DNA of 64,000 nucleotides from contig CBDCNQ010000004.1 of NCBI GenBank assembly GCA_965219445.1, forward strand, positions 1 through 64,000, given 5' to 3'. The notes beneath the pieces are model-generated. The model did not search any database, was not told the DNA's origin, and saw nothing but the letters and a program-made list of their open reading frames with translations. The stretch comes from Longimicrobiales bacterium. GTDB lineage: Bacteria; Gemmatimonadota; Gemmatimonadetes; Longimicrobiales; Gaopeijiaceae. The position numbers and the translations under genes are program-made. Shown here piece by piece: positions 4,245 through 33,349 of the stretch. The stretch's first letter is position 1. Each line of letters begins with the position of its first letter.

Positions 4245-4387
4245 ATGTGCTCCAGGTTGGAGGAATCCTTGGGCCCGGCTGGTCGCCTATGTGTGGACCA
4301 TAGGTTCATACCAGCGTTAGACTTCGTTGGTTCGAACTCGGTATGCTCACGAGCCGTCACCACCACCGTTTTACTCCGACGCCGAAG

Positions 4388-6700
4388 ATGACTGATCATC
4401 CTGATCGTCCTGCTGCCGGGCAAGATTTCGTGCGTGCCATCATCGCCGCCGACGTCGAGACGGGCAAGCACGGGGGGGCCGTCGTCACGCGGTTCCCACC
4501 CGAGCCCAACGGCTTCTTACACATCGGCCACGCGAAATCGATCTGTCTCAACTTCGGCGCAGCCGCTGAGCACGATGGTGTCACTCATCTTCGGTTCGAC
4601 GACACGAACCCGGAGACCGAAGACGAACTCTACGTCCGCTCGATCCAGGAGGACGTGCGTTGGCTCGGGTTCGACTGGGGAGATCACCTCTATTTCGCGT
4701 CGGATTACTTCGAGCGCTTGTACCAGTACGCGATCGAATTGATCGAGGCGGGCCTGGCGTACGTGGACAGCTCGAGCGAGGAAGAGATCAGGGATTATCG
4801 AGGTACCGTAACCGAGCCGGGACGACCCACCTCGTACCGGGACCGATCCGTCGCAGAAAATTTGGATCTCTTCCGCCGCATGCGCGAAGGCGAGTTCGCC
4901 GACGGCACCCACGTGCTGCGAGCAAAGATCGACCTCACATCGCCGAACATGCTCATGCGCGATCCCGTGCTCTATCGGATTCGGCACGCGGACCATTACC
5001 GCACGAGTGGTGACTGGTGCATCTATCCGCTCTACGACTTCACCCACTGTCTTTCCGACTCCATCGAGGGCATTACACACTCCCTGTGCACTCTGGAGTT
5101 CGACAACAACCGGGAGTTGTACGACTGGATTCTGGATCATGTCGACGTCCCTCGGCCCCAGCCGAGACAGTACGAGTTCGCACGGCTCAACCTGGAATAC
5201 ACCCTCCTGAGCAAGCGAAATCTCCTCTGCTTGGTACGGGAGGCGCACCTAGACGGATGGGACGACCCCAGGATGCCCTCGATCGCCGGAATGCGGCGCC
5301 GTGGGGTTCCGCCGGCCGCTCTCCGTACCTTTTGTGACATGATCGGTGTGGCCAAGACCGAGAACCGGGTGGACTTCGCGAAGCTCGAGTACGCGATCCG
5401 GGATGAGCTGAATCCGACCGCGCCGCGCGTCATGTGCGTGCTTCGCCCTCTCAAGCTCATCGTGGACAACTTCGGAGAGCAGGAGCTCGAAGAGTTGGAC
5501 GCGCCGTACTTCCCGGACGATATCGGCAAGGAGGGGTCACGCCTCGTACCCTTCACGCGGGAGCTTCTGATCGAGCGTGGCGACTTCGAAGAGGATCCCC
5601 CAAAGGGATTCCGCCGGCTGGTTCCGGGCGGGGAGGTGCGCCTGCGCTACGGTTACGTCGTCCGCTGTGTCGACGCCGTAAAGGATGAAGATGGGGTGGT
5701 CACCGAGGTGCACTGTACGTACGATCCCGAAACGAGGGGTGGCTCGACGCCCGACGGACGCAAGGTCAAAGGCACCATCCACTGGGTCTCCGCGTCGCAC
5801 TCCGTTCCCGCGGAGGTCCGCCTGTACGATCGGCTGTTTTCAGTGCCGGACCCGGAGAACGTAGAAGATGGAGAGGATTTTACGGTGCACCTGAACCCCG
5901 ACTCTCTTACGGTCCTCGCCGACAGCCGAGTCGAGCAGAGCGTCGCGTCGGATCCGACCGATACGACCTATCAGTTCGAGCGCACCGGTTACTTCGTTCA
6001 CGACGCCGTCGACTCCAGGCCCGACCACCTGGTCTTCAACCGCATCGTGACGCTCCGGGACAGCTGGGCAAGGGCTCGAACGGAGGCCGAAGGCGAAGCG
6101 GCGAAACCTCATCCGGCTCAGGTAGAAGAGAAGGCGGGCGGCCGCGCCTCACCGAGTGATCCACGCCCGGGGGATCCGAAGGCCGCTTCGCGGTACGACG
6201 GGCTGCTGGAGGAGCACGCATTGGCCGAGAGCGAGGCATCGGTACTGGCGCAAGACCTCGGCTTGTTCGGGCTCTTCGGCGAGGGATCGAAGCACACGGC
6301 CGACCTAGTCGGCCTCGCAAAGTGGATCGTGAACGAGGTGCCCCGTGTTCTCGAGAACCGCCCGGTGGACGCGTTGCTTTTCGGGGGACGGGAACTCGCC
6401 CGCCTCGTTGAGCTCGTCTCGAAGGGCGACGTCTCTGGGCGGGCCGCCAAGGACGTGCTCGCGGTTTTGGCGGAAGAGGGTGGAGATCCAGACACCGTGA
6501 TCGAGGCGAGGGGCTTGGGCCGGGTGAGCGATGCGTCGACGCTCCAGCCCATGGTCGCGCGCCTGGTTGAATCCAATCCCACCCAGGCCCAGAGTTACCG
6601 CGACGGTAAGACGGGCCTCATGGGCTTCTTCGTCGGGCAGGTGATGAAGGAAACCAACGGGGCGGCCGATCCGGAGGTCACACAGAATCTCCCTACGTGA
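4388..6700 (+). CDS. glnS: Glutamine--tRNA ligase with C-terminal GatB/YqeY domain
   Basis: TRFPPEPNGFLHIGHAKS (HIGH) and LSKR motifs; C-terminal GFFVGQVMK. The extreme C-terminus probably carries a 1-nt indel near 6690. Confidence 0.95.
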   Translation: MTDHPDRPAAGQDFVRAIIAADVETGKHGGAVVTRFPPEPNGFLHIGHAKSICLNFGAAAEHDGVTHLRFDDTNPETEDELYVRSIQEDVRWLGFDWGDHLYFASDYFERLYQYAIELIEAGLAYVDSSSEEEIRDYRGTVTEPGRPTSYRDRSVAENLDLFRRMREGEFADGTHVLRAKIDLTSPNMLMRDPVLYRIRHADHYRTSGDWCIYPLYDFTHCLSDSIEGITHSLCTLEFDNNRELYDWILDHVDVPRPQPRQYEFARLNLEYTLLSKRNLLCLVREAHLDGWDDPRMPSIAGMRRRGVPPAALRTFCDMIGVAKTENRVDFAKLEYAIRDELNPTAPRVMCVLRPLKLIVDNFGEQELEELDAPYFPDDIGKEGSRLVPFTRELLIERGDFEEDPPKGFRRLVPGGEVRLRYGYVVRCVDAVKDEDGVVTEVHCTYDPETRGGSTPDGRKVKGTIHWVSASHSVPAEVRLYDRLFSVPDPENVEDGEDFTVHLNPDSLTVLADSRVEQSVASDPTDTTYQFERTGYFVHDAVDSRPDHLVFNRIVTLRDSWARARTEAEGEAAKPHPAQVEEKAGGRASPSDPRPGDPKAASRYDGLLEEHALAESEASVLAQDLGLFGLFGEGSKHTADLVGLAKWIVNEVPRVLENRPVDALLFGGRELARLVELVSKGDVSGRAAKDVLAVLAEEGGDPDTVIEARGLGRVSDASTLQPMVARLVESNPTQAQSYRDGKTGLMGFFVGQVMKETNGAADPEVTQNLPT

Positions 6701-11175: not shown

Positions 11176-12417
11176 TCATCCTGTGACCCTCGCTTCGATG
11201 CGGTCGATCGCGCCGCGGAAGGTGTCGGGTACGAGGTGCGCGTAGACCTGCTCGACGACCTGCGTGGTGTCACCGAGCAGGCGTGCTACGACGGTGAGGC
11301 TCACGCCGTCCTGCGCGAGCCACGATGCGAAGGTATGGCGTCCTGAGTGCAGCGTGAGGCCATCGCCCTGGGCGCCATACTTGATGCCCGCCCGCCGGAA
11401 CGCTTCTCGCACCCAGGTCGTGATGGTCACGGCGCCTATCGGCTCGTCGCGGCCCGCGGTCCGGATCAGGTATCGTTCTCCTGCGTAGCCTCTTTGGATG
11501 TGGTTATCGATGATTGCGGCAAGGCTCGGCGCGAGCGGTACGTCGCGCTCGCCGCGGCTCGTCTTCGGTCTCCAGGGCCAACGTCCCGCCCTGGACTGCA
11601 CGCGCAGAAGCGGGTAGTCGCCGTCGAGTGCCACGTCGGTCTCGGGCCTGAGATGGATGATCTCGCCCCTTCTGAGCCCGGCGAGGAACGCGAGGGCGAC
11701 GATGGCGCGCACGGGCGAGCCGGTCGTGGCCCGGTCGAGCTGCCGCCACTCCTCGGGCGTGAGGAACGAAAAGCGTGTGCGCCGCACCTCGGGCGTCTCG
11801 ACCTTCTTCCAGGGGTTCGAACGGACCAGTAGCTGCACGCCCTGCCGTTCAAACGCTTCGGCCTCCTCGGCCATGACCATGCTCCAGAGCGCGCCGCACA
11901 CGATCCGGCAGCCCTGCTGCGTGGCGGGCGCCCATGCGCCCCGGCCGTCGCGCTTGGCATGCAGGTACTCGCGCGCGTCGGAGACGGTGAGCTCTTCCAT
12001 GGGGAAGTCCACGCCGAGCTCGCCCGTGAGCGCTTCGAGATAGCCCCGGTACTTGTCACAGGTGCGCCGGCTTCGGGTAGCCTCCTTCATCCTCATGAAC
12101 CTCTGCATGGCGGGCCCGAGCCGTGGCGAGTCGGAGCCCATGCGCCTGAGCTTGGTGGCGTCGCCGTCCCTGAGCGCGGCCTGCGCGTCGGTGATGTGCA
12201 TGTCGCCCCTGCGGATCGCTTCGAGCACGCCCCAGTCGCCTCGGTCCATGAGCTGCACCAGCACCGCGTGCCGCTCGTATGCGACATCGGGATCGTCCGT
12301 CCTGAGCGCGACGGCCAGGCGTCCGCCACGGAAGCGCGGATGCCGGCGGTCGAAGTAAGCGCGCCCAGCGCGCCACATGAGACCCTTCGGGGCCCGCTTA
12401 CGCCGTCTGGGGCTCAC
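11176..12417 (-). CDS. int: Tyrosine integrase
   Basis: GLRRGE, HSGRH and YAH catalytic motifs; adjacent to attL. Confidence 0.93.
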   Translation of the reverse strand: MSPRRRKRAPKGLMWRAGRAYFDRRHPRFRGGRLAVALRTDDPDVAYERHAVLVQLMDRGDWGVLEAIRRGDMHITDAQAALRDGDATKLRRMGSDSPRLGPAMQRFMRMKEATRSRRTCDKYRGYLEALTGELGVDFPMEELTVSDAREYLHAKRDGRGAWAPATQQGCRIVCGALWSMVMAEEAEAFERQGVQLLVRSNPWKKVETPEVRRTRFSFLTPEEWRQLDRATTGSPVRAIVALAFLAGLRRGEIIHLRPETDVALDGDYPLLRVQSRAGRWPWRPKTSRGERDVPLAPSLAAIIDNHIQRGYAGERYLIRTAGRDEPIGAVTITTWVREAFRRAGIKYGAQGDGLTLHSGRHTFASWLAQDGVSLTVVARLLGDTTQVVEQVYAHLVPDTFRGAIDRIEARVTG

Positions 12418-16217: not shown

Positions 16218-16700
16218 GCCTCACCTCCGAAGATCCGCCGCCAGATCGTGTCGTCGGTTGCGTGGCTAAACTGCGCCGGACCGGCGATCCGCCGCGATTT
16301 GGCGATATGGCTGGGCTGCTCGGCGGGCCAGATCGTGCGCGTCCCGCCACCGATGCCCTTGCCGTCTTCCGACACCACGTCATAGCCGAGAAACAGCACA
16401 TGGTCGGCCCACTGAACGACCCGGTTGCGGATCGACGCCTTGCCCGAGCGCGGCCGCTGTAGATGCGGCTCGTAGCGAATCCAGTCGTCTCCGGTCGGAT
16501 TCGGTACGCTCTCGATGCAGTCATGCGCGATCAGGACCACGTTGCGGCCCGCCCGCACTTGCCGGTCCAGGTCCGCGAGCAACAGCAGAAACGTGTCGTA
16601 GACGTGCTGGTAGCCTTTGCCGAATCCGTAGCCCTCGATGCTGGAGACCGTCGCCCCTTTCTCGTGCTTCACGGTTTCGAGCGTGTGGGCGATCGCAAGC
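16214..16700 (-). pseudogene. Sak4/AAA_24-like ATPase, 5'-truncated
   Basis: SIEGYGFGKGY, VVLIAH, WADHVLF and HIAKSR motifs. The Walker A half is missing and the frame stops at ~16702. Confidence 0.75.
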
Positions 16701-16770
16701 TAGTACTTTTTCGTGCAACGTTTCACCAGCCGCTATCCCCTCGAAGCGGTGAACAGGGAGAGGGTGCCCA

Positions 16771-17172
16771 ATGACCGCAGCAATCTCTAGCGCATCCTTA
16801 GCCGTCTACACCTTTCTTTTGCCTATAGCCCAAGTGAGTCTGGTAGTCGCGGTGCTGATCCTTGTCCCGATGGCATTTTTTCAGGGCACCAAGAAACCAG
16901 CGGGCGTGGGTCTTCTTTGGGCATCCTACCTCTTGGGAGCAACCACCTGGACCCTCGGCGCGGCAATCACTTTTAGCATCTATAGTTGGTTGGGTCTGGC
17001 GGTGGGGATGTTGTTTTTCGGGGTGGGAGTTGTGGCACTCGCTATCGTTGGAAGTGTCTTCGTGATTAAGTCCGCCAGCATGGCTATTTCGCTAATCGTT
17101 ATGGCCATTTTAGTGTGGGGTTTTCGTGCTTGGGGGGTTGCCCTGATGATAGCGCTCCCAGGCGGCGAATAA
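16771..17172 (+). CDS. 4-TM membrane protein (moron-like)
   Basis: RBS GGAGAGG; hydrophobic; lower GC; opposite strand to the other phage genes. Confidence 0.7.
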   Translation: MTAAISSASLAVYTFLLPIAQVSLVVAVLILVPMAFFQGTKKPAGVGLLWASYLLGATTWTLGAAITFSIYSWLGLAVGMLFFGVGVVALAIVGSVFVIKSASMAISLIVMAILVWGFRAWGVALMIALPGGE

Positions 17173-17381
17173 AGGGGGCACCGTGTCTGGGGTGTATTGG
17201 GGAGGCGTCATCATCGTTGGCGGTGCCGCTTTTCTTCGGCACCTGGATTTATGCAGCGATGACCTACGGGGTGTTTCTCGGCATCGGGCTCGGATGGATT
17301 CCGACCATCGTTGTCGGAGTGGTGGCGGGGCTGGTTTGGCCGCTTTTCGCTCTCGTTGCGGTAGCCCCCAGCGGACCATAG
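17115..17381 (+). CDS. Small membrane protein (start uncertain)
   Basis: Hydrophobic C-terminal ~55 aa. Confidence 0.45.
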   Translation: MGFSCLGGCPDDSAPRRRIKGAPCLGCIGEASSSLAVPLFFGTWIYAAMTYGVFLGIGLGWIPTIVVGVVAGLVWPLFALVAVAPSGP

Positions 17382-17450
17382 GGCGGGGCTCAAAAAAATG
17401 GCGACTATACACTTGACGACACCCATCACAGGGTGCAAAAAAATATAAGG

Positions 17451-17491
17451 AAATAAGAAAAGGGGCCGCGCCGTTTCTGACGTGACCCCTT
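17451..17491 (-). terminator. Rho-independent terminator of the antisense sRNA/tRNA unit
   Basis: GGGGTCACGTC-loop-GGCGCGGCCCC followed by TTTTCTTATTT on the minus strand. Confidence 0.75.
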
Positions 17492-17525
17492 CAGTGTGGC
17501 AGAACCACACTCTAACTTCGCAAGT
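17455..17525 (-). ncRNA. Putative anti-tRNA small RNA (~70 nt)
   Basis: Begins ACUUGCGAAGUUAGAGUGU, the perfect complement of the tRNA segment at 17623-17641; has its own promoter and terminator. Confidence 0.7.
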
Positions 17526-17531
17526 ACCTAT

Positions 17532-17560
17532 AGTATCGGCGGAAAGCTGCTCCTGGTCAA
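17532..17560 (-). promoter_or_regulatory. sigma70 promoter of the antisense sRNA
   Basis: TTGACC-17 bp-GATACT; predicted +1 at 17525, the first antisense base. Confidence 0.65.
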
Positions 17561-17576
17561 GTAAGAATGCCAGCCG

Positions 17577-17663
17577 TGGTGCCCGGGGCGGGATTCGAAC
17601 CCGCACGACCCGAAGGCCACTAACTTGCGAAGTTAGAGTGTCTACCAGTTCCACCACCCGGGC
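17577..17663 (-). tRNA. tRNA with Leu-type body and Ala anticodon CGC (predicted mistranslating tRNA)
   Basis: GCCCGGG TG GTGGAACTGGTAGACAC T CTAAC-TTCGCAA-GTTAG TGGCCTTCGGGTCGT GCGGG-TTCGAAT-CCCGC CCCGGGC A CCA. All stems pair; long variable arm, A73, no G3:U70. Confidence 0.9.
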
Positions 17664-17739
17664 ACCTAAACAAAGCGGGCGTCGTCGTCGTCGACACAAC
17701 TCGCAAGCTATTCAGTCCGCGATGATGGCTGACCTATTG

Positions 17740-17768
17740 AGGCTAGATAAACCTGGGCTTGGGGTCAA
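17740..17768 (-). promoter_or_regulatory. sigma70 promoter of the tRNA
   Basis: TTGACC-17 bp-TAGCCT, giving a ~70-nt leader. Confidence 0.6.
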
Positions 17769-17775
17769 CCGACAT

Positions 17776-18459
17776 CTAGCGCACCACCCACACCACCGCG
17801 ACACCTGTACCGAGACCTCTCATGAAGCTCCCGACGTGCCCGAAGAAGCCGCTAGGCAGCGCGTCCCGGAGGAACCCGATCTCCTCTTCGTAGAGCCGGT
17901 TCGACTCGGCGAGGATGGCTTTCTCGGCTCGCTCGGTCGCCAGATTCCGTTCCAGCAAGACGATGGCGAACGAGTCTGCTTGATGGAGGGCCGTAGCCCC
18001 GAGTAGCTGTTCCCGGAACGCTTCGCGGACGCTCTGCTCCGCTGCCTGCTCCTCCCGGTGCTGCGCCTGAGCGATCTCGACCAACGGACGGAGCTCGGGA
18101 CGTACGACGGCATAGAGGCTGTCGTGGGTCGCGTCGAGGTCGGTGCCTGCCTGAGCGGCGCGCTCGGAGGCATCGGTCTCCTGTTGCTCGGCTTGCGCGA
18201 TCATCTCACGGGCCTGGACGCGCTCGATTCGTAGAGAATCCCGCACCTGTTCGAGCTCAAGCGAATCGGCACGGGTGCGCGCACTCGCGTCACGGAGTTG
18301 CACCTGGAGCTGTGCCTGATCTTCGGCCCGGTCGTCAGCAAGCGCTTTCGCCACGGCGAGATCGGACAGCGCGCCTTGGAGCCACCAGCCGAGGACGCCG
18401 AGCGCTACGATCATGATGAGCTCGCCGGGCAGACGAACGCGGGTGAGCCAGTCGTTCAT
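17776..18459 (-). CDS. Rz/i-spanin-like coiled-coil membrane protein
   Basis: N-terminal TM and long coiled coil; end of the lysis cassette. Confidence 0.55.
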   Translation of the reverse strand: MNDWLTRVRLPGELIMIVALGVLGWWLQGALSDLAVAKALADDRAEDQAQLQVQLRDASARTRADSLELEQVRDSLRIERVQAREMIAQAEQQETDASERAAQAGTDLDATHDSLYAVVRPELRPLVEIAQAQHREEQAAEQSVREAFREQLLGATALHQADSFAIVLLERNLATERAEKAILAESNRLYEEEIGFLRDALPSGFFGHVGSFMRGLGTGVAVVWVVR

Positions 18460-18914
18460 CGCGGCGCCAACGGTATTGGCCTGATCTCGCACTCTGCGAA
18501 GCGGGGGTCGTCATGATCACCACCACCGAGCAAATCGTGGATCGCTTCGTGGCTTACCACGACAGGGTCATTCACCGTGCGCCGGTCGAGCAGGATCTCG
18601 CGGGGCAGGGGAGCGGCCCAGCCTCCGAATTTTCGGCCTAGCGTCTCTACGTCGAGCAAAAAGTCCACGACCGACCAATTAATCGCGAAGAAGTCGCCTT
18701 CCAGACCCGTACACTCCTCCATCAGCGAATAGATGTAGGCGTGCATCGTGGTCGGATAGAACTGGATCCTGTTCCAGTAGCGCACCTCGGTCCAGCCCGT
18801 TTCGGTCGACGCCGAGGGGGGCGCCACGCGCAGCACGGGGGACGGCAGAGCAGATCCCGTGCAAGCAGCGAGCATGGACAGCGCGAGTCCGACGCAGAGG
18901 ATGCGCCGGATCAT
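18456..18914 (-). CDS. Phage lipoprotein with HExxH motif
   Basis: Lipobox LAAC; HEAIH. Confidence 0.6.
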   Translation of the reverse strand: MIRRILCVGLALSMLAACTGSALPSPVLRVAPPSASTETGWTEVRYWNRIQFYPTTMHAYIYSLMEECTGLEGDFFAINWSVVDFLLDVETLGRKFGGWAAPLPREILLDRRTVNDPVVVSHEAIHDLLGGGDHDDPRFAECEIRPIPLAPR

Positions 18915-19459
18915 GCCCTCGACACCTTGGGCAACAGCTGGCGGATGTCGTCGACGGACAGGATCGGGTTGTTCGGGTCGGTGCCTTCGGGATCAGTCTT
19001 GCGGCCGCGTGGCCAAGCTTCGCTGGAGTGGCCGACGATGCGCCACGTGTCTCTGAGGTTCCAGCCGTGTTTCTCGTAGTAGATGCGGCAGAGCAGGGCC
19101 ATGGTGAGCATCTGTAGCGGGGTGACGTCGTGTTTTCCGCTGGAAGCGATCGCGATGCCGTAGAACGCCGAGTTGGCGTCGCCGTAGTGGAGCCTGGCCG
19201 GGTCTGAGGGCCTACAGCGGCCCGCATGCCACGCCCGGGCGCTGTCGGGCGCTATGCGTACGTAGGAGCCGTCGTCGAGGATTAGGAGGTTGTAGCTCAC
19301 GTGGCAGCGCGGATCGCCGAACCACTGCATCGAGCCGCGGTCGGATCCGCTCCCGTCGTAGTGGAGAAGGATGCCCTGGCGGTCCTCGCGGAGCGTTCCG
19401 TAACGCTGGTTCAGGATCTCGCCCGTGAGCGTCGGCGTCCAGACGAGCTGCCCGGTCAT
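18911..19459 (-). CDS. N-acetylmuramoyl-L-alanine amidase (endolysin)
   Basis: ILLHY, AWHAG, IVGH and KTDP Amidase_2-type motifs. Confidence 0.88.
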   Translation of the reverse strand: MTGQLVWTPTLTGEILNQRYGTLREDRQGILLHYDGSGSDRGSMQWFGDPRCHVSYNLLILDDGSYVRIAPDSARAWHAGRCRPSDPARLHYGDANSAFYGIAIASSGKHDVTPLQMLTMALLCRIYYEKHGWNLRDTWRIVGHSSEAWPRGRKTDPEGTDPNNPILSVDDIRQLLPKVSRA

Positions 19460-19758
19460 CGCTCGTCGTCCTTGAACCGGTCGTCGGTGCCGGCGTTGCG
19501 GCGTGCGGCAGCCGCGACGGCCGCTGCGACACCGCCGAGCTGTGGGCCGACATACTGGGCGATCCGCGGCCCGGCGGCCCAAGCCAGCAGCCCCGTGCAG
19601 ACCGTTCCCATGAGTGCGTACGCGGGGCCGGGCACGTTCCAGGCCAGCGAGTCCAGCACGATCAGCGCACCGGCGAAGAGCAGCGCGCCGATCAGCAGCA
19701 ACCTTGCCGAGGATCTGGAGCCGCGCTCATCGTGGAGGAACCCCGGTTCCTGGCTCAT
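19456..19758 (-). CDS. Holin-like 2-TM protein
   Basis: Two TMs; directly upstream of the endolysin. Confidence 0.6.
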   Translation of the reverse strand: MSQEPGFLHDERGSRSSARLLLIGALLFAGALIVLDSLAWNVPGPAYALMGTVCTGLLAWAAGPRIAQYVGPQLGGVAAAVAAAARRNAGTDDRFKDDER

Positions 19759-20283
19759 GACCCGTTACTCCCGCCCAACCACGGCACTGACTTCATCCTG
19801 AGCTTCGCCGACTTGATGAAGAACTGTGCGTTACCCTGAAACGAGATCGCCTCCTCCCAGAACATCGCGACGGTGACCGTCATGATGAGCTTTCCGGCCG
19901 GATCCCAGCCGAGGATCTCGAAGGTCATGCCTTCGATGAACGCCGCCATGATGACCACGAGGAAGATCACGAGCAGCTTCAGGACCCCATTCCTGGCTTT
20001 GTCGGCGCGCAGCTTCACCTTTCGGATCCGCAATCGCACGTAGCACTCCGGTCGCCCAGTCGACGCCCCACGCGCCGAGCAGGAACCAGAACGGAATGCC
20101 GAACGCGCCCTGCATCTGCGCGAGCACGGCCACGAGCGCGCCCATCCCGACCTTCGGGACGAGCGAATGCGTGACGGTATCCTGGACGTAGTGGCCGAAA
20201 TAGACGAAGAACGACTGCGCGGTGTTGATCTCCTTGCTGCCGTCAATCGGTCCGACCCATGTTCCTTCGCCTAGAACGTACAT
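19755..20283 (-). pseudogene. Phage holin (holin_4_1-like) with a frameshift at ~20020
   Basis: DWATGVLRAIADPK continues in another frame as VKLRADKARNGVLKLL...EEAIS. Confidence 0.65.
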
Positions 20284-20395: not shown

Positions 20396-23300
20396 TCACC
20401 TCTCGGAGCGCCGTCGGGTGGTGTCCTGCCCAGCATTGCGCTGTCTCCGCTGCGCGTCTAAGAACAACAACTGACCGACGCGATTGGCACCGCCGGTCCC
20501 TGCCTGCTGCCCCGACGTCTCACGCCAATCCGGGGTGTAGCCGGCCAAGGGGTCCTCGTTGGGAAGGGAACCAATGCGGTCTATGCGGTTGGGTGTCTGT
20601 TTGCGCTCTTGCTCGCGGCGCGTGCGCTCGCGCTGTGTTTCCGCCCGGATCCGACCCACACGGAACGGCCCCCTGGCGGGTCGCCCCTCCTCACCGATCT
20701 CCTGGAGCGCGGCCCGGGCCAGCGCGTTCGCTTCGGTGCTCAACGTCCTACGATCATTCACCGAGGGTGTGAAGCGGCGCACGTAGGACAATGCCGTGAC
20801 GGCTTTTGATGCGTCCGCGAGCAGCAGGCGCTTCTCGCGCTGGACGGCGCTCTCTTCACGCACATTGGAGCTCTGAATCTTCTGAGCGGCTTCCAGCGCA
20901 TCGTACAGCTCGTCGATCGAGCGAGAGCGGGTCGTGCCACCGCGCACGAACAGGCGCCCGAATATGGGCGTATCGGCCAACTCGTTCTCGCGCTCGATGC
21001 CCGCCGCTCCAAGCCCGACGAGTTCTACCAAATCGGAGCCGACCGGCCCGAACATTCCCCTGATGCCGTGATCGATACGTCTGGGCGATACCTTGAATAT
21101 CTGGCCCATCGTGATCGCGGCTCGGCTCGTGAACTCGTTGAACTGTTCCTCAGCGGGAAGATTCTGTTGGCCACGCGGAACGATCGGCGTGTCGAAGAAC
21201 GTGTCTCGGTTCGCGCCTTGCTCGTAAATCTCCTCCAACCCCGGCGGCGTGAGGGGCGGCACCATCGTCTGAAGCGCGACTTTCATAAACGCGATCGCGC
21301 TCTTTCGATCGTTCAAATACCACGCATCGAGCAGCATCTCTGGGAACGCACTAAAGACGTAGCCGACCTCGAAACCTCGCGGGATCCGCACGAGCTCCTC
21401 ACGTCCATCCGGCAGTGTGACGGAGAAATGCCAGTGCAAGAACTTCTCGCGGGAGTCCATCTCCTTCCACCACTCTTCGTCCTTGTTCCGCCACCACAGG
21501 AGCAGTGTCGCGGCCGTGAGTTGGAGCCCACGTAGCGCGAATTTCTGCAGGTTTCGTTTCCCGGCACGCAGGTTCGCGCGCGGGCCCTGGATCGCGGCGT
21601 TGTGGAACGGCACCATGCGGTTCGCCGCACGGCTGAACTCGCCAGCGGCGGTGAAGTCGGTCGTCACCTGTTTGGCGGCGAGCAAGAGACGGAACGACTG
21701 ATCGACGGTCATCGGCTCGCCAGGCTGCCACCCGATTTCTGCGGACAACAGCTTGAGTTCGGCCACACGCGGCGCCGATTCAGGGGCCTGCACGAGGTCC
21801 CGATACCAGTCGAACCAATTCCTTGGATCGAGTGTGCGTGCTGTACGGCCGTGGAACAGCCGACGAGCGGCGCGACTGGCTTGTGGTAGGTCCTGGCCGA
21901 GCGGTTGCGCCATCTCGCCACCGAGCCGCACGAAGGCGTCCAGATATTCACTGCGCCGCCCGACGGTCCTGTCCAGCGCCGCATCGGTCATCGCACCGAG
22001 CCACGTAGCCAGCAGCCTTGGCCCGGCAGCCGACGTCTGTGTGTTCACCCACATCGTTTGTGCGTCGCGGATCGGATTCCACAGCAGACCGAACGATGCA
22101 CGGAGGCCGGTGGTGCCTGCCCTAAAGATTTCGGCGCTCTTGCCGAGCGTCGCCTCAAGGATTCCTAGGCCGGCGACTTGCGGCAAGCGGTAGACGTCGA
22201 GTGCCGAGAGCGCACCGAACAACTTGGCGTCTACCTGAAACCACCGGATTTTCTCGCCGTCCCGCAGCGGAACGATCGGATCGGCGCCACTCGGTCGGTC
22301 CTTGGGCACGAAGAAGGTGACCGCTTCGTTGAAAACTTCCAGCGTCTCATCATTGACGGGGCCCGGGTCTGTTTCGAGCCCGACGCCCTCGCGCGCGAGG
22401 CGCTTCTTGAGTTGGTCCAAGAGTTGACCGATCGTGCGTGTCGCACCCGGCACCATCTCGGGCGGCACCTCTTCGATCAGGCCGCCCATGCCTTCGATGC
22501 TGCTCAAGCGGATGATCTGGTCGATGACCATTCGGTGATGGGCAGCACGTAGGGTCGAGGACGCCTGCGAGATCATAACGGGGAACGGGTCTTTGATCCT
22601 GCGACCGCTGCCCTTGAGACGCTTCACCGGACTGCGAGTAGTCGCGCCTCCCTTCTGCGCTGCGCGGCCCCACAGATCGTCGATCTCATCGAACATCCGT
22701 TGCAGCGGCACGTAGTCGCCAGGATCCCGCTCGCGCACCTTCGAGACGATTTGACGGAACGAGGGCGACGCCTGAGCGGCGTAATTCAGCACCCCATCGT
22801 TCCACTCGTAAACGATTTGGGCGCCCTGCGCGAATCTGGGGTTTTCCAGTTCGGATATGATCTGTTCGGCATCGATGAGCGAGAGCCCTGGGTTGCGAGC
22901 GCCCTGTGGATCGTTCCACAACGCCCTGGCGCGCCTGGCCCATAGATAGATCGTGAAATCCTCGCGCTCTAAGGGCCGAATCATCGCCTCGATCGAGTTC
23001 AGCGGTTGACCCACCTTATTGCCAGCCAGGTCGATCATCGCGTTCTCGACCATGTAGCGTGTACGAGCGGTATGCGTCGTTCTGAGCGCCGAGAGCGTTA
23101 AGGATGGATCCTGTGACGGAGCCAGCGGACGTTCAAGCTTGCGCTGTGCCTCGGCCGAGAACTCAGCGATCGGCTGCGCCATATCGACGAGATTCTCCAT
23201 GCTGAAGAACCGCCTCACTCCTTTGCCGGCCCTCCCTATGCGCTCACGCAGACTGCCCGTGTCCGCCATGCTCGCCACCGCACGTTGCCGGCTGCCCTGA

Positions 23301-26107
23301 TCGCCGTAGCGCGTGGTAGCGTCCCGAGCCGATTCCATCGCCTTACGAACCTTCGGTTGACCGGCTAGAAACGAACCATCGAACCACTCCGCGAAGGTCG
23401 GGGCCACGCGCAAAGATTCTTCGTCCGACGTGATCCACGCCCGAACGAACTCGGCGAACCCTTCGCGCTTGTATCCACCAACGGGCTTGCTCTCGCCGTA
23501 CAGACGGAAACCGAGTTGCCTGAGCTCCCTCTGCATCTTCCCGGTAACGCCCGCTATGGAGCCTTTCCAAGGCCCACCCTTCGGCCAACCGTAGATAACT
23601 TTCTCGATCGCGTGCGCGACCTCGTGTGCTGCGGTCGGGATGTCGTTCGCCTCGCGCGTCCTGATAACCTCGGGGCGCACTTTGAAAATGCCGAGCGCAC
23701 GACGTTGTCCTATCCGACCACTACGCAGCGGTAGCGCGCGACCCGCCGCCTCGGTGATCTTGGCCATCGCGCCGATGACGGCCGGCGCCGACACGGGACC
23801 GCTCGCGGCTACGTCGACAGCCGGCGTCAGGCGTCCCTTCAGGCTCGGATAGATCGTAACCCGTTCGTCCTCGTCCACGAGCGGATCCGTCGGAGGTACG
23901 ATCCTCGCACTCGTCGGTACCGAACTCGCTGTGCCCGTGGCGGTGGGGGCAGGATAGAACTGTGTGCCGGCGGGACCGCCGAAATCGTCGGAGATGTCAC
24001 CCGACGCAGCCGGAACTTCTTCGTCGATCCCACGCGCTCGCGCCTCGCCGGCGTAAAGCGTGCGGCGCACAGCAGCAGTTGTAGAGCCCAGGTCGCTGAG
24101 TGCTTCCACCTCGGCACGAACAAGACGCTCGATAACCTCTGAGTCGGTTAGATCGGAAAGCTCAAGGAACTCGGCACGAACACCGACTGGCACGTTCCCG
24201 GCCCTGACGTATCGGTATGCGTCATCGAAATCGGGCAGCTCGATCTCACGACGACGGAGCTCGTTCTCGTACGCGACCCGACGATGCCCTGCTTGCGTCA
24301 GCCGGCCACGTGCGAACGAGCCTTTGCCGGTGCCCGCAACGCCCTTGATCCCGGCGTTATCGAACACGCGGATCCCCGGTCCCGCTTCGTTGGCCTCCGC
24401 CTCGGTCTCCGCAGACTGCCGCAGGGTCGCACGGTATCGGGCCGCAAGTTCCTCGTCGGTAAGACTCTTCGCTATCTGTGTGGCCTTCTCGAACACCGCG
24501 CCCGCGCCTGCCGGCCTTACGTCGTCGCTTGCGACCTCGCCCGCCCGCGGCCCAATCGCTTCGGCGACCGGGAGAGCGTCGTCCTGCGGGATTGATTCGA
24601 TCGGAACGCCAGAGTCGTCTAGCTTCACCTCAGGGCCAATAGTGATCTTGTCTGTGCGTTCCTGCGGGATCTGGACGTCACCTCTACGAGAGCTTGCACC
24701 GGCAGCCGAGGCACCCGCTACCGATCCGACCAGCGCACCGATGGCGCCCGCACCCTTCATGCGCTCACCGATGTCCCTCAGCGCTTCGGGATCCTTGGTC
24801 GCTACGAACTGCGTAGTGGCCTGGAATGCTTCCTGCACCGCTTCGGTGACGCCCTCAGCGATGAGCCCCGAGCCCGCACGGCGCGCGACGTTCGGGATGA
24901 GCTCCATGAATTTGCTACGGAAGAACGCCTGAGCGCCCGGCACGCGATCGAACAGGATCACGGCACCCGGGATCGCTTCCAGCACGGCGGAACCAAGGCC
25001 AACGACCGCCGCGACGCCGGCAGCCGTCCGTTCGGCCTCTTCGGCGCTCGCGCCCTGTCTGAGCGCCATCGCTTTCGTTTCCTCGAACGAGCCGCCGCCC
25101 TCAAGAACAAGGTTCGGGGCTGCGAACGCGGCGAGCCTGAGCGCTGGCGATCCCGGCACCGCGAGAGCGAGCCCAACCTGAGAGCCGAGCTGCAAGAACC
25201 CTTCGCCGCCACGGGCGAGCCACCAGCGTGGATTCGATGGGTCGAACGCGCCACCGGCTTGCACCGACAGACTCGGCGGGTTGCGTTCCTGGATCTCTTG
25301 CCCCGCGGACGATAATGAGCGCCCTGGGCGCTTGAGCGGGGGCACAACCTGCCCGATCGTTCGCAGCGTACCGCCTACACCCTCAGTGGCTTGTCCACCA
25401 AAACGCTTCGCGGTACGTGCCATCTCCGTACTGAGCGGTAGATCGGGCTTCAGTGCACCGGTTAGCTCCATGCCCGGTGGCGGAGCGTCCCCGAACTGTG
25501 GATCCCTTAGGCCCAGACGCCGATTGAACTCACGGCCTTGCTCCACGACTCTGCGCATCTGCTCGCCTAAGCGTTCGCGCTCACCTTCAGGCGCTTCGAC
25601 GGCCGGTGGAGTCCGAGCGATTGTTGCGTTTCGTAGGCTTACCGTGTTGTCGCGATCCGCCCGGATCTTTTCGCGCATGAGGTCGAGCGAGGTCGGTCCC
25701 GTGGGTTCCGGCGGCCTGGCAACCCTCGTCGCGTCAGCAGCCGAGTCGGGGGACACCCGCGTTTCCTTCAAGTCGCCCAGTGGGTCGGCGGCGGGCTGCG
25801 GACGAGTCGTAGGCAACGCCACCGCCGTGGCGTCTGCGGCGAGGTCCGGGGACACGGGACGAGGCTCCCTCCGGCCCAAGGTGGCTCGAAGCCTAGCACC
25901 AGCCCGCTGTAGTAGAGAGGGCTGCGGCTTGGCCTGCCGTTCACGCCAGTCGGGTGTATATCCCGCTAACGGGTCCCCGGCCTGTCGGCCCGATGCCTGC
26001 CGTTCACGCCAGTCGGGCGTATAGCCTGCGAGAGGATCCCCCGTCTGTTGCCCTACCTTTTCACGCCAGTCTGGGGTGTAGCCAGCAAGAGGATCGTCAG
26101 GATCCAT
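20396..26107 (-). CDS. Large polyvalent/internal virion protein (LPD38-like C-terminus)
   Basis: 1903 aa; C-terminal VRIPRGFE...ANRDTFFDTPIVP...VSPRRIDH pattern; lies before the lysis genes. Confidence 0.7.
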   Translation of the reverse strand: MDPDDPLAGYTPDWREKVGQQTGDPLAGYTPDWRERQASGRQAGDPLAGYTPDWRERQAKPQPSLLQRAGARLRATLGRREPRPVSPDLAADATAVALPTTRPQPAADPLGDLKETRVSPDSAADATRVARPPEPTGPTSLDLMREKIRADRDNTVSLRNATIARTPPAVEAPEGERERLGEQMRRVVEQGREFNRRLGLRDPQFGDAPPPGMELTGALKPDLPLSTEMARTAKRFGGQATEGVGGTLRTIGQVVPPLKRPGRSLSSAGQEIQERNPPSLSVQAGGAFDPSNPRWWLARGGEGFLQLGSQVGLALAVPGSPALRLAAFAAPNLVLEGGGSFEETKAMALRQGASAEEAERTAAGVAAVVGLGSAVLEAIPGAVILFDRVPGAQAFFRSKFMELIPNVARRAGSGLIAEGVTEAVQEAFQATTQFVATKDPEALRDIGERMKGAGAIGALVGSVAGASAAGASSRRGDVQIPQERTDKITIGPEVKLDDSGVPIESIPQDDALPVAEAIGPRAGEVASDDVRPAGAGAVFEKATQIAKSLTDEELAARYRATLRQSAETEAEANEAGPGIRVFDNAGIKGVAGTGKGSFARGRLTQAGHRRVAYENELRRREIELPDFDDAYRYVRAGNVPVGVRAEFLELSDLTDSEVIERLVRAEVEALSDLGSTTAAVRRTLYAGEARARGIDEEVPAASGDISDDFGGPAGTQFYPAPTATGTASSVPTSARIVPPTDPLVDEDERVTIYPSLKGRLTPAVDVAASGPVSAPAVIGAMAKITEAAGRALPLRSGRIGQRRALGIFKVRPEVIRTREANDIPTAAHEVAHAIEKVIYGWPKGGPWKGSIAGVTGKMQRELRQLGFRLYGESKPVGGYKREGFAEFVRAWITSDEESLRVAPTFAEWFDGSFLAGQPKVRKAMESARDATTRYGDQGSRQRAVASMADTGSLRERIGRAGKGVRRFFSMENLVDMAQPIAEFSAEAQRKLERPLAPSQDPSLTLSALRTTHTARTRYMVENAMIDLAGNKVGQPLNSIEAMIRPLEREDFTIYLWARRARALWNDPQGARNPGLSLIDAEQIISELENPRFAQGAQIVYEWNDGVLNYAAQASPSFRQIVSKVRERDPGDYVPLQRMFDEIDDLWGRAAQKGGATTRSPVKRLKGSGRRIKDPFPVMISQASSTLRAAHHRMVIDQIIRLSSIEGMGGLIEEVPPEMVPGATRTIGQLLDQLKKRLAREGVGLETDPGPVNDETLEVFNEAVTFFVPKDRPSGADPIVPLRDGEKIRWFQVDAKLFGALSALDVYRLPQVAGLGILEATLGKSAEIFRAGTTGLRASFGLLWNPIRDAQTMWVNTQTSAAGPRLLATWLGAMTDAALDRTVGRRSEYLDAFVRLGGEMAQPLGQDLPQASRAARRLFHGRTARTLDPRNWFDWYRDLVQAPESAPRVAELKLLSAEIGWQPGEPMTVDQSFRLLLAAKQVTTDFTAAGEFSRAANRMVPFHNAAIQGPRANLRAGKRNLQKFALRGLQLTAATLLLWWRNKDEEWWKEMDSREKFLHWHFSVTLPDGREELVRIPRGFEVGYVFSAFPEMLLDAWYLNDRKSAIAFMKVALQTMVPPLTPPGLEEIYEQGANRDTFFDTPIVPRGQQNLPAEEQFNEFTSRAAITMGQIFKVSPRRIDHGIRGMFGPVGSDLVELVGLGAAGIERENELADTPIFGRLFVRGGTTRSRSIDELYDALEAAQKIQSSNVREESAVQREKRLLLADASKAVTALSYVRRFTPSVNDRRTLSTEANALARAALQEIGEEGRPARGPFRVGRIRAETQRERTRREQERKQTPNRIDRIGSLPNEDPLAGYTPDWRETSGQQAGTGGANRVGQLLFLDAQRRQRNAGQDTTRRRSER

Positions 26108-29563: not shown

Positions 29564-31069
29564 TCATACGCCCTCGGCTACCCGGGTCCAGCGAGGTCCT
29601 CGCTGTTCGTCGGGCCAACCCAGGCCGTCCGAGCCGGGCTGCGGCAGGAGCTTGTGGCCCGCATCGTCCGGATGCTTCGGTGGCCCCTTCGGGCGCTCGA
29701 CGGCCGGCGTACGAGACATGAGCCAGCTGGTGATGCCGTCGTAGCCGTGATCGTCGGAGTCCGTCGCTACGTCCTCGCTGTTCTTATCGTCGAGCGGCAG
29801 AGCGGGCAGCGTGCGGATCAGATACTTACAGCTCGGGTGCACCTGCAGCTTCGGCAGCCCCCACGGGTAGACCTCGCCGTCGTCCGCTCGCTTGTACCTC
29901 AGGTAGTCGTGCAACATCTGCTTCTTGGTGTCGCGCGAGCCAGCACCCTTGGGCGGGTTGATGAAGGGCACGGGGAACTTCGAGACCGCCGCGTTCATGC
30001 CGGCCTGCAGCTTCTCCAGGATCGTCGGGCCGCCGTCGGCCACGGCCGGCGTATCGATCGCCGTCCATTCTGGCCGTGGATAGCGCATCAGCACCTGGCC
30101 CCACGTGTAGCCGACCGAGTAAGGGTCGGTCTCCTTGAACAGGTACTCGTGACGCACGAGGCTGCGCTCGGGGCCGCTCGCCATGAGGTACATGCAGCCC
30201 TGAGCCGTGTGGCCCCAGTCGCCGCCCGCGCTCCAGCGGTATTTGCCGCGGTCGGCACCGCGTTCGGGTTCGTATTCGGCTACGTGCACGTCACGGTTCC
30301 ACTCGGCGAAGGCCATGCCAACGAAGTGGTCCCAGTTGCCCTCGACCCATGCCTTGCGGAGGTTCTCGCCCAGCGTATTGAGCTCCTCCCAGTATTCCTT
30401 GGTCAGGTACGGGTTGTCCGTCGGCAGTGAGCGGATGAAGCAGAACTCATGAGCGAGCGGCGTCAGTCGTTCGTAGTCGCCCGTATAGTCTTGCTCGATC
30501 CACAGCGCCTTGACCCACAGGTGCCCGGCCGAGCCCGGATTCGTCGCGCCCCAGAAGAACGTGTCCGTGATCCTCGGCCAGCGCAGCGAGCCCCTGAGCG
30601 TGTCGAAGATCGAGATGTCGGCGCTCTTCGTCAGCTCCTCGACGGCGACGCCCGCGAACTCGGCCGACTGGTACTTCTCAGGCTTGTCGAGATTGCGGAG
30701 TAAGATGGCGCCGCCGCCGAAGCGCTCGTGCAGGTAGAAGCCAAGGCCCTCGTCCTTCGTGTCGGCGAGCCTGCCGAGCCACTCGGGGAACTCGGCTTTG
30801 ATCTTCGTCACCTGCCGGTCCTTGAGCGTCGGATAGTCCTCGCTGAACAATCCGACACGCACGCCTTTGTGGCCCGCAAGCGCCCACAGGATGAGACGAT
30901 AGAGTAGACCCCACCTCAGCAGCCGGCTCTTGCCGCCGCCGCGAGCTCCACCGTAGAGCATGTAGCGATGCTGCTTCGCCTCTTTCAGGAATTCGAGCTG
31001 GCGCGGGATCGGCTTGAACAGCGCCCAGAAGTCGAAGCCGCCGTCCTTCAAGGCCCTAGCGCTATTCAT
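29564..31069 (-). CDS. terL: Terminase large subunit
   Basis: GGARGGGKS Walker A, VEE Walker B, ATNPG, and DWG and DHGYD nuclease motifs. Confidence 0.93.
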   Translation of the reverse strand: MNSARALKDGGFDFWALFKPIPRQLEFLKEAKQHRYMLYGGARGGGKSRLLRWGLLYRLILWALAGHKGVRVGLFSEDYPTLKDRQVTKIKAEFPEWLGRLADTKDEGLGFYLHERFGGGAILLRNLDKPEKYQSAEFAGVAVEELTKSADISIFDTLRGSLRWPRITDTFFWGATNPGSAGHLWVKALWIEQDYTGDYERLTPLAHEFCFIRSLPTDNPYLTKEYWEELNTLGENLRKAWVEGNWDHFVGMAFAEWNRDVHVAEYEPERGADRGKYRWSAGGDWGHTAQGCMYLMASGPERSLVRHEYLFKETDPYSVGYTWGQVLMRYPRPEWTAIDTPAVADGGPTILEKLQAGMNAAVSKFPVPFINPPKGAGSRDTKKQMLHDYLRYKRADDGEVYPWGLPKLQVHPSCKYLIRTLPALPLDDKNSEDVATDSDDHGYDGITSWLMSRTPAVERPKGPPKHPDDAGHKLLPQPGSDGLGWPDEQRGPRWTRVAEGV

Positions 31070-31464
31070 TCCACCTCGACCTCGCTCAGGTCGCGCACGA
31101 TCAGGAACTTCACGTCGCCGCCGTCCGGCTGTGCGTAGGCTCCGTGCAGCTTCAGGATCTCCCTGGTCGCGTCCTTCGTGTCGAACTCCTCAACCGACTT
31201 GCCTGCTTTCGTGATGACCTTCGTGCTCACCCTACCACGAGCCATCTCGGCCATGCGCTCGGTCGCTTCCGCTGCGCTCATGCTGTATTGCTCCAGCCGC
31301 TCGGCGATCGCGTCTCGGATCTGAGGTTTTCTGAGGTTTTCGTAACCGATCGCGCTGGCCGATCTCTCACTGTAGCCGGCAGCGATGGCCGCCTGGGTCG
31401 CGTTGAGCCGTGAGGGTCCGCAATACTCCTCCACGAAGCGCTTACGCTTGCCGCTCATGGTCAT
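31066..31464 (-). CDS. terS: Terminase small subunit
   Basis: FVEEY...NATQAAIAAGYS...IGYENLRKP. Confidence 0.92.
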   Translation of the reverse strand: MTMSGKRKRFVEEYCGPSRLNATQAAIAAGYSERSASAIGYENLRKPQIRDAIAERLEQYSMSAAEATERMAEMARGRVSTKVITKAGKSVEEFDTKDATREILKLHGAYAQPDGGDVKFLIVRDLSEVEVE

Positions 31465-32670: not shown

Positions 32671-32889
32671 TCACGTCCCCCACGGGCCCTCCGTGTAGAA
32701 ATGCTTGATCAACCACAGGAGCAGGATCATCAGCGGGATGCCCACGAAATAGGGCTGCGCCTTGATCAGGTACCAGATGTGCGAGGACAGGGTGTCGTTC
32801 GCGCGTTCGTTGAACACGGCAACACCCTCGACGACGAGGAAGAAGGCGATCCACAGCGCCCAGAGCCAGGTGAAGGCGTTAACTGGCAT
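32671..32889 (-). CDS. Small 2-TM phage protein
   Basis: Hydrophobic ORF with DTLSSHIW motif. Confidence 0.55.
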   Translation of the reverse strand: MPVNAFTWLWALWIAFFLVVEGVAVFNERANDTLSSHIWYLIKAQPYFVGIPLMILLLWLIKHFYTEGPWGT

Positions 32890-33349
32890 TAGAGGTCTCC
32901 CAGCTCGGGCTACTGATTTCTTCTGGCTCACCGTGCCGCTCGACCAAGAAGCTTAGGTGATCGACGATCATCGAGTGGAACGGGTACTCCCGGCCTTGGT
33001 CGGTGTGCTCGTGGAAGCGCATCGAGTATCTCAAGAGCAGTCCGAGGCGCATCATTGTCTTGGCCGCGATAACCTGGTGGGCGAGCAGCCGGGTCCGGGT
33101 GATCAGGTCGTCTCCAGTCGGGGCGGGTGCCGTCTGCAGGTCCCGGATCACCGGATGATCTTTGAGATTTGCAGAGTACAGTCGTCCGGTGGTCGCACGC
33201 TCGCGCACGGCCTGGTATTGCCATCCGATGGCCGGCCACTCGAAGTCTTCGATGAACGCGAACGCCTCCTTGGCGAGCTTCCGATCGAAAAGCGCGAACC
33301 TCACGAGTTCGGTCGCGGCCTCTTCTGCGCTCTCCATCAGGTGGGCCAT
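32879..33349 (-). CDS. Phage hypothetical protein
   Basis: GAGGAG RBS; follows the helicase. Confidence 0.55.
   Translation of the reverse strand: MAHLMESAEEAATELVRFALFDRKLAKEAFAFIEDFEWPAIGWQYQAVRERATTGRLYSANLKDHPVIRDLQTAPAPTGDDLITRTRLLAHQVIAAKTMMRLGLLLRYSMRFHEHTDQGREYPFHSMIVDHLSFLVERHGEPEEISSPSWETSNAS

Follow-up and report, generated by a model that had tools for sequence, protein, structure and literature searches.

Why should a tRNA gene be followed, on its own strand and a short distance downstream, by an exact complement of part of itself? The question is raised by one locus in a 64,000-nucleotide stretch of DNA from a Longimicrobiales bacterium (hereafter the window, C4:1-64000 of genome G000, which comprises 4.56 Mb in 5 contigs with 63% G+C). 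The minus strand of this locus encodes a tRNA and, beyond it, a predicted small RNA, within a prophage of ∼25 kb that has ordinary host genes on both flanks. An antisense small RNA with its own promoter and an antitoxin-like layout had been proposed here in an earlier reading of the window (the original prediction), and every sequence element that it listed was found to be present. The answer suggested by the analysis is a two-RNA cassette in which the small RNA would pair with a leucine-type tRNA bearing the anticodon CGC, preventing GCG codons from being misread as leucine, a reading to which a probability of about 0.55 is assigned.

A repeat search returned two 19-nt arms that are 100% complementary and separated by 97 nt (the target and antisense segments of Table 1). 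By our own arithmetic a 19-nt match of this kind is expected by chance ∼1e-5 times per 2.3-kb region, and no second copy of the repeat was found in the 4.56-Mb genome with up to 3 mismatches allowed. A transcript of the minus strand carries the tRNA segment and then its exact complement, which lies 52 nt beyond the tRNA end. The promoter scan returned a site exactly where the −10 hexamer of the small RNA had been named, matching the consensus at 9 of 12 positions, as compared with 0.2 ± 0.5 sites in shuffled sequences. The further claim, that transcription starts exactly at the first complementary base (17525), is a prediction from spacing. The proposed GUGUGG/CCACAC hairpin and terminator hairpin are both in the minimum-energy fold of the small-RNA region (−34.1 kcal/mol, z = −4.55), and none of 200 shuffles folded as well. 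The candidate promoter of the tRNA unit, read by eye, matches the consensus at 8 of 12 positions, under the threshold of the promoter scan, and would give a leader of ∼70 nt; a comparable promoter-like site lies ∼80 nt upstream of the tRNA in two relatives (L071 and L073). In searches against Rfam 15 only the tRNA was matched within the window cassette (E up to 1) and at 13 other loci (E up to 0.1), the sole other match in the window scan being a weak, chance-level snoRNA family outside the cassette.

The key point, missed in the first reading, is the nature of the tRNA, as the combination of a leucine-type body with an alanine anticodon gives an “antitoxin” something to neutralize. The gene scores 55.5 bits against the Rfam tRNA model RF00005 (threshold 29), is also called by ARAGORN, and has a 7-bp acceptor stem, a 5-bp T stem, a 15-nt variable arm, the T loop UUCGAAU and the anticodon CGC, which reads the alanine codon GCG. 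All matches to the 281-nt cassette region in 60 related genomes fall inside the tRNA part, and ARAGORN identified each of the six examined as tRNA-Leu(UAA or CAA). Alignment A1 reveals acceptor, D and T arms nearly identical to those of tRNA-Leu(UAA) from two genomes of the same order, with an anticodon arm that is wholly different. The G3:U70 wobble pair, reported as the identity mark of alanyl-tRNA synthetase (AlaRS; PMC5389517), is absent and replaced by C3:G70; across 16 members of the family described below, pair 3/70 (columns 3/83 of alignment A2) is CG in 7, GC in 7, UA in 1 and UG in 1, and in none is it G:U in the AlaRS orientation. A bacterial leucyl-tRNA synthetase (LeuRS) is described as needing A73, the U8-A14, G18-U55 and G19-C56 core and the variable arm, with the anticodon arm dispensable for aminoacylation (PMC2377443), and A73, U8, A14, G18 and G19 are invariant in 16/16 family members. 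Neither the window tRNA nor the family has a leucine anticodon (NAG or YAA), and the host's own tRNA-Ala(CGC) is a normal, 74-nt gene elsewhere in the genome. By sequence, then, the cassette tRNA combines a leucine-type body with an alanine anticodon and is no ordinary tRNA-Ala. An assignment to the allo-tRNAs was rejected, the acceptor and T stems being 7/5 and not 8/4 or 9/3.

Pairing of the cloverleaf reaches 97.9% over the same 16 members, each of the five stems shows compensatory changes, and the family tRNAs appear to be under tRNA-like selection. The tRNA's own anticodon stem is the least kept (90%, as compared with 100% for its other stems); the anticodon loops are a canonical 7 nt, with A37 in the members read. 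C replaces U55 in L048, L088 and G494a, and C33 occurs in some members (T-loop columns of A2; sequences of L118, L120 and L121). Either change should weaken tRNA function, and these members may be attenuated versions.

Related cassettes were sought with a degenerate pattern consisting of a leucine-type D arm, six free bases and UUCGCAA. The 67 loci that it matched in metagenome contigs comprise 18 long-arm CGC tRNAs, 44 loci without any tRNA (chance matches) and 5 with a tRNA that is not CGC. The 18 CGC loci share one order of elements: the tRNA, a TTGAC-type −35 element, 16–18 nt, a −10 element with A2 and T6, the complement of the own arm, a hairpin and a terminator. The promoter-like site, with this spacing, is present in 17/17 modules, and the complement begins 1–7 nt past the −10 element; in alignment A3, A2 and T6 of the −10 are invariant and TTG of the −35 is invariant or nearly so. 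In a phylum sample of 400 genomes the same pattern added two, G494 and G543, the former with two cassettes 5.5 kb apart whose arms differ and are each matched by their own downstream stretch. A covariance model (R1), built from 16 modules and running from tRNA nucleotide 18 through the complement, was run on the class (151 genomes) and gave well-separated strong matches of 60–135 bits in at least 13 of them, as compared with ∼40–58 bits for ordinary tRNA-Leu. Counted with G000, these are distributed as 1/33 genomes in family f1 (this genome only), 9/28 in f4, 2/10 in f5 and 1/3 in f6. Elsewhere in this genome's own family the pattern was found in 0/70 other members, and R1 gave no strong match in the other 32.

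The collection from metagenomes and related genomes amounts to 35 long-arm tRNAs (the window and 34 others) with eight non-leucine anticodons: 23 CGC, 2 GGC and 1 AGC (alanine), 3 CAC (valine), 2 GUC (aspartate), 2 GCC (glycine), 1 CUC (glutamate) and 1 GGU (threonine). Almost all of the 34 others show a promoter-like site followed by a stretch that covaries with the anticodon arm of the same module. The excess of CGC arises because the search pattern fixed this anticodon, and the modules, being related, are not independent, so that all such counts overstate the number of evolutionary events. Several cassettes with differing anticodons or arms can occupy one genome (two in G494, at least four in G515 and three in G499). 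Their neighbors vary by locus and include MutS/TonB, S9 peptidase, ExbD, GNAT, amylase, MnmA, ClpXP, UvrD, kinases and permeases; no conserved partner protein gene was found at the loci whose flanks were read. Decayed cassettes also occur: in L094 (G543:C82:1-2011, ∼470–720) the tRNA ends after the anticodon loop while the promoter and small RNA persist, L063 has other sequence in place of the tRNA 5′ end, and in L130 the complement is degenerate.

The strongest evidence for a functional relationship between the two parts comes from their complementarity. When the 22-nt anticodon-arm segment was compared with the 150 nt downstream, the longest exact Watson-Crick run in the 35 modules had a median of 12 and reached at least 10 nt in 29, as compared with a median of 5.5 and 0/16 for ordinary tRNA-Leu genes; upstream flanks gave runs of 5–9 except for one of 12, and the best of 50 shuffles gave 6–10. 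By duplex energy the cognate downstream region ranked first of 34 in 29 modules and among the top three in 33, the exception being a degenerate copy, and in the first set of modules 15/15 small RNAs bind their own tRNA best. In A3, a MAFFT alignment that is not fitted to structure, a 22-pair long-range helix is 90.8% paired, with ten pairs changing on both sides and up to five pair types at a position; slid registers of the whole 31-pair structure gave 33–48%, and 0/500 shuffles reached the observed values. The anticodon triplet is fully Watson-Crick paired with the complement in 31/32 distinct modules over all 8 anticodons, the remaining one having two Watson-Crick pairs and a G-U. Among the isolated mismatches inside the helix, 20 are G-U, 7 A-C and 4 of other kinds (25 G-U and 6 A-C over all cells of the first 15 modules), an excess of G-U that indicates pairing at the RNA level on the strand of the tRNA and speaks against a DNA-level site. 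Collectively, these comparisons make it very probable that pairing of each small RNA (or trailer) with its own miscoding tRNA is the selected feature. The separately promoted antisense RNA and antitoxin-like layout of the original prediction are thus strongly supported by the conserved promoter-like site and the covarying complement, with the small RNA itself being predicted.

How pairing would begin differs from what had been suggested. The original prediction folded the 5′ end as ACUU-GCG-AAGU, displaying GCG in a 3-nt loop for a kissing interaction; that hairpin has a computed energy of +1.2 kcal/mol and does not appear in the predicted fold, so folding lends no support to codon display. 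Instead, nucleotides 1–14 of the predicted small RNA are mostly unpaired (probability unpaired 0.70–0.99), after which the GUGUGG/CCACAC hairpin sequesters the last bases of the complement. In this model a single-stranded seed facing the pre-formed anticodon loop would be an equally good start for pairing, and cofolding, which ignores tertiary structure and modifications, favors the heteroduplex of tRNA and small RNA by −19.5 kcal/mol over the separate folds. The remainder of the small RNA resembles an antisense copy of the D arm that has decayed, and its gene appears to have arisen as an inverted copy of the tRNA 5′ half.

Several relatives carry additional elements around the small-RNA gene. 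L051 has a second small-RNA gene behind the first (700–860) that is perfectly complementary to the tRNA D arm (nucleotides 8–26) and not to the anticodon arm, and in L073 (690–800) a second such gene is a duplicate that has diverged and whose core is altered. Many modules (for example L031, L079, L100, L102 and L105) have a short palindrome of the CTCGGC...GCCGAG type between the −35 and −10 elements, which is not obvious in the window and may serve as an operator or form a hairpin in the trailer of the tRNA transcript.

For the cassette as a whole, a mechanism in four steps can be proposed, of which the third is best supported and the fourth least. LeuRS would charge the CGC tRNA with leucine, the bacterial enzyme being reported to read A73, the tertiary core and the variable arm and not the anticodon arm. 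The charged tRNA would put leucine at GCG, and this should be strongly proteotoxic because GCG is the joint commonest alanine codon here (40.5 per 1000 codons in ∼2,090 host open reading frames (ORFs)). In yeast, tRNA-Leu altered to carry G/C at anticodon positions 35–36 (alanine anticodons being among the variants) is reported to cause dramatic growth defects and to be among the most growth-inhibiting (PMC11028032). The small RNA, made from its own promoter, would start pairing through its single-stranded 5′ end at the exposed anticodon loop; pairing would then spread into the anticodon and D stems, unfolding the tRNA and blocking decoding and/or forming a duplex of the RNase III type. Finally, loss of the cassette or a shut-off of its transcription would free the tRNA and poison translation, because a tRNA persists for long and a small antisense RNA usually does not, which is the addiction or abortive-infection logic of a prophage “moron.”

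We infer, tentatively and at slightly less than even odds, that the cassette is toxin-antitoxin-like, selfish or defensive, in which the stable tRNA would be the toxin and its small RNA the antitoxin. This reading draws on the self-contained form of the cassettes, the several orthogonal copies per genome, the varying neighbors, the decay of the tRNA first, and the restriction to a prophage in this genome's own family. Somewhat short of an even chance, too, is the joint proposal that the family is a new RNA-only class of toxin-antitoxin module, in which a working tRNA inserts leucine where frequent codons call for alanine, valine, glycine, aspartate, glutamate or threonine and a short-lived “anti-anticodon” RNA is an antitoxin specific to that one tRNA. 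Such modules would have spread in soil bacteria and by at least one phage, and they would serve addiction or abortive infection, a stop in transcription causing proteome-wide mistranslation.

A number of points weigh against this account of the cassette. The existence of the small RNA, its ends and the charging of the tRNA are all predicted. Structure-fitted alignments flatter the helix: ordinary tRNA-Leu genes come out 79.4% paired, as compared with 89.2% for the modules, and for this reason alignments A5 and A6 were set aside as evidence and only the unfitted counts are relied on. GCG is as common in the prophage as in the host (45.7 per 1000 codons in 17 prophage ORFs), and an active tRNA would harm the phage's own proteins; avoidance or recoding of GCG in the prophage was rejected, as GCG makes up 39.7% of its alanine codons, compared with 39.2% in the host, and alanine stands at 11.5% compared with 10.3%. 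A folded, modified tRNA may resist strand invasion, a resistance that the modeled duplex energy would not register. The C33 or C55 of some members should weaken ribosomal or LeuRS function, and these tRNAs are possibly unused in decoding. Where they are common, the cassettes sit among housekeeping genes, which also fits a physiological regulator. Lastly, the scan found nothing resembling a terminator from the end of the tRNA to the complement, and pairing could act in cis.

The absence of that terminator bears on one alternative in particular, that the complement acts within a read-through precursor, an inactive “pro-tRNA” whose trailer, and perhaps leader, pairs with the anticodon arm so that processing sets the amount of mature tRNA. 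Placement of the antisense sequence in cis by read-through had been raised in the original prediction and is possible: the predicted fold of the 224-nt transcript from tRNA to terminator includes the long-range helix and has an energy of −100.1 kcal/mol (z = −5.70). Leaders, too, are complementary to their own anticodon arm, ranking among the top three of 34 in 11/34 modules as compared with ∼3 expected; in the window this duplex (stretch 17693–17707) is estimated at −21.7 kcal/mol and ranks 2 of 34. A −35/−10 pair at fixed spacing directly before the complement in every module where it was scored would, however, be needless for a pure cis element, and on balance this explanation is considered unlikely; cis and trans modes of pairing are not exclusive. 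Separately, one clade of cassettes shares a conserved leader motif. If the cassette instead tuned a deliberate, beneficial mistranslation, such as stress-induced diversification of the proteome, no toxin or defense function would be called for, and the presence of several cassettes per genome among housekeeping genes in two families of the class would be accounted for. Natural mistranslating tRNAs are documented in soil bacteria, as tRNAProX (PMC11415595) and allo-tRNAs (PMC5389517). Against such tuning, the yeast screen (PMC11028032) places the replacement of alanine, glycine, aspartate or glutamate by leucine among its most harmful substitutions, and the patchy distribution, the decayed copies and the location of this genome's copy in a prophage make it quite unlikely.

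It is also conceivable that the tRNA does not serve the ribosome, acting instead as decoy, sponge or aminoacyl donor in a non-ribosomal process, with tRNA and small RNA titrating each other for another target. The C33 or C55 of some members and the weaker pairing of the anticodon stem would agree with this, and Mukai et al. (PMC5389517) report irregular tRNAs that are charged and do not translate. The canonical 7-nt loops with A37, real sense anticodons for frequent codons and the lack of a conserved partner protein gene nearby nevertheless render a non-ribosomal role improbable. An origin at the DNA level, in which the 19-bp inverted repeat is a site of recombination or inversion, or a neutral remnant of a template-switch duplication, would suit the perfect identity of the window arms and the presence of a tyrosine integrase gene ∼5 kb away; inversion of 17526–17622 had been named as an alternative in the original prediction. 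It is barely credible given that the arrangement recurs at 34 other loci with different, covarying arms and that G-U outnumbers A-C among the internal mismatches. Contigs assembled from seven metagenome runs (∼4×) break inside the tRNA and show the reference arrangement only, with no strand-change joint, at a depth that could miss a minor form. Moreover, in our reading, inversion would create no second tRNA, there being no matching acceptor strand upstream. A T-box-like leader was likewise considered and rejected, as the gene past the terminator is encoded on the other strand and runs towards the cassette (flanks read at L051 and L071). The two-RNA cassette, in which the small RNA pairs with a miscoding tRNA, is accordingly the reading preferred here.

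Table 1. Positions of the cassette elements and of the main prophage genes in the window.
Feature	Position	Strand	Remarks
Candidate promoter of the tRNA unit	17740–17768	−	TTGACC (17768–17763), 17-nt spacer, TAGCCT (17745–17740)
Predicted tRNA 5′ leader	17664–17733	−	Imperfect antisense-like stretch 17707–17693; hairpin and T run 17697–17669 (terminator-like, scan)
tRNA	17577–17663	−	87 nt; class II; leucine-type body; A73; encoded CCA; anticodon CGC (ARAGORN, Rfam)
Target segment within tRNA	17623–17641	−	D-stem 3′ strand, nucleotide 26, anticodon-stem 5′ strand, loop UUCGCAA, first 2 nt of 3′ strand
Promoter-like site of the small RNA	17532–17560	−	TTGACC (17560–17555), 17-nt spacer, GATACT (17537–17532)
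Predicted small RNA	17452–17525	−	∼72 nt; ends predicted
Antisense 5′ segment of predicted small RNA	17525–17507	−	19 nt; perfect complement of the tRNA target
Hairpin GUGUGG/CCACAC in predicted small RNA	17511–17493	−	Minimum-energy fold
GC-rich terminator hairpin, then U run	17492–17460; 17461–17451	−	Minimum-energy fold
Integrase (tyrosine)	11176–12417		Prophage; ∼5 kb from cassette
Clamp-like and Sak4-like genes			Prophage
Amidase	18911–19582		Prophage; holin gene also identified
1903-aa protein with LPD38 “large polyvalent protein” domain	20396–26107	−	Nearly a quarter of the prophage
Terminase subunits	29564–31464		Prophage
DnaB-like helicase and methylase	up to ∼36.6 kb		Prophage

Within the prophage the cassette is placed at the end of the minus-strand late/lysis block, and it appears to be an accessory, self-transcribed insert of the “moron” kind. 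Homology with the only related element found, in G006, a genome of the same genus, ends at 17789, just upstream of the cassette. The G006 copies (C1, C2; L017–L024) are three fragments of 2.3–3.2 kb, homologous to window 17789–20269 and without the tRNA, embedded among many identical insertion sequence-like repeats of ∼1.4–1.6 kb; one copy is also 97% identical to window 32870–34584. The neighboring ORF at 17776–18492 has 6 relatives in the protein collection, and in a family search of 314 genomes only G006 matched; no match to this ORF was found in viral contigs, genome contigs or 300 genomes of the order. Likewise, a megablast search of 16500–19500 against phage records found nothing, the window anticodon-arm pattern and the amidase had no match in viral contigs, the 19-mer had none in genome or metagenome contigs, and the general pattern of a leucine body with CGC gave 2 chance matches in viral contigs, both without a tRNA. 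A relative of ∼90% identity from another study (X5) covers 17634–17770 only. Duplication of a tRNA at an attachment (att) site was rejected as the source of the repeat, which is inverted, comes from an internal part of the 5′ half (raw nucleotides 23–41) and lies 52 nt from the tRNA, with the integrase ∼5 kb off.

Some further observations were made in the same genome. On the plus strand, two small ORFs (window 16771–17416) converge on the cassette terminator; their third-position G+C of 0.60 and 0.51, as compared with 0.73–0.86 for most prophage ORFs, and the lack of any family match for either suggest that they are possibly foreign or not genes. At 4343–6700, also on the plus strand, the window encodes a tRNA synthetase of the glutaminyl/glutamyl type fused to a C-terminal GatB/YqeY domain. 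On another contig, 18 tRNA genes lie within 2.4 kb (G000:C3:31920-34298), and a truncated second copy of tRNA-Ser(CGA) is found 7 kb beyond this array, as integration would leave.

In type I toxin-antitoxin pairs such as Hok/Sok, Ibs/Sib and Ldr/Rdl, a small antisense RNA targets the mRNA of a small toxic peptide. The cassette resembles these in having an antisense RNA with its own promoter beside the target, specificity for the cognate partner, several orthogonal chromosomal copies, occurrence in a prophage and a patchy distribution; it differs in that the complementary target is a tRNA and not a toxic-peptide mRNA, and the genes are in tandem on one strand and do not overlap. Type VIII systems (SdsR/RyeA, CreT/CreA) pair an RNA toxin with an RNA antitoxin, and CreT acts through the tRNA pool. 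As in these, both partners of the cassette would be RNAs, with complementarity and covariation found and toxicity and rescue predicted; unlike in CreT/CreA, the toxic partner would be a working miscoding tRNA and no Cas proteins are involved. Antisense control of plasmids (ColE1 RNA I/RNA II, R1 CopA/CopT) relies on recognition initiated at loops. In the cassette, too, a pre-formed 7-nt loop would be the first point of contact, from which pairing would extend to a long duplex; this loop would come from the tRNA side only, as the 5′ end of the small RNA is predicted to be single-stranded. The c4 antisense RNA of phages P1 and P7 (Rfam RF01695) has an mRNA as its target. The cassette shares with c4 a prophage location and an antisense RNA on the same strand and in the same region as its target, which here is a tRNA and not an mRNA, and it has no Rfam match other than the tRNA.

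Tied to the tRNA side are the allo-tRNAs of Acidobacteria, in which anticodon and identity do not match and which are reported to lie near toxin-antitoxin systems and are proposed to be missense suppressors or regulatory RNAs (PMC5389517), and tRNAProX of Streptomyces, which has the body for one amino acid with the anticodon of another (PMC11415595). The cassette tRNAs are similar in the disagreement of body and anticodon and in coming from soil bacteria, and are dissimilar in being canonical 7/5, leucine-type molecules with a dedicated antisense gene, of which none is mentioned in the available parts of those two accounts. The cassette therefore works like type I and type VIII pairs and plasmid antisense control and is a member of none of them. 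A full-text literature search, with subscription journals and supplements outside its scope, returned no account of a natural antisense RNA against a tRNA or of leucine-type tRNAs with these anticodons, and the conserved family is apparently undescribed.

If the proposal is correct, cells and phages keep loaded miscoding tRNAs under dedicated antisense-RNA control. The cassette would be a natural antisense RNA that targets a tRNA, an on/off switch for mistranslation and a toxin that turns the genetic code into its weapon, adding a tRNA-based member to the repertoire of toxin-antitoxin and phage-defense systems. It would also account for the persistence of anticodon-mismatched tRNAs in genomes, and would offer synthetic biology ready-made orthogonal tRNA/anti-tRNA pairs for the control of missense suppression. 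Even without a toxin role, the conserved, covarying pair of tRNA and small RNA is a clear and directly testable new RNA-RNA interaction.

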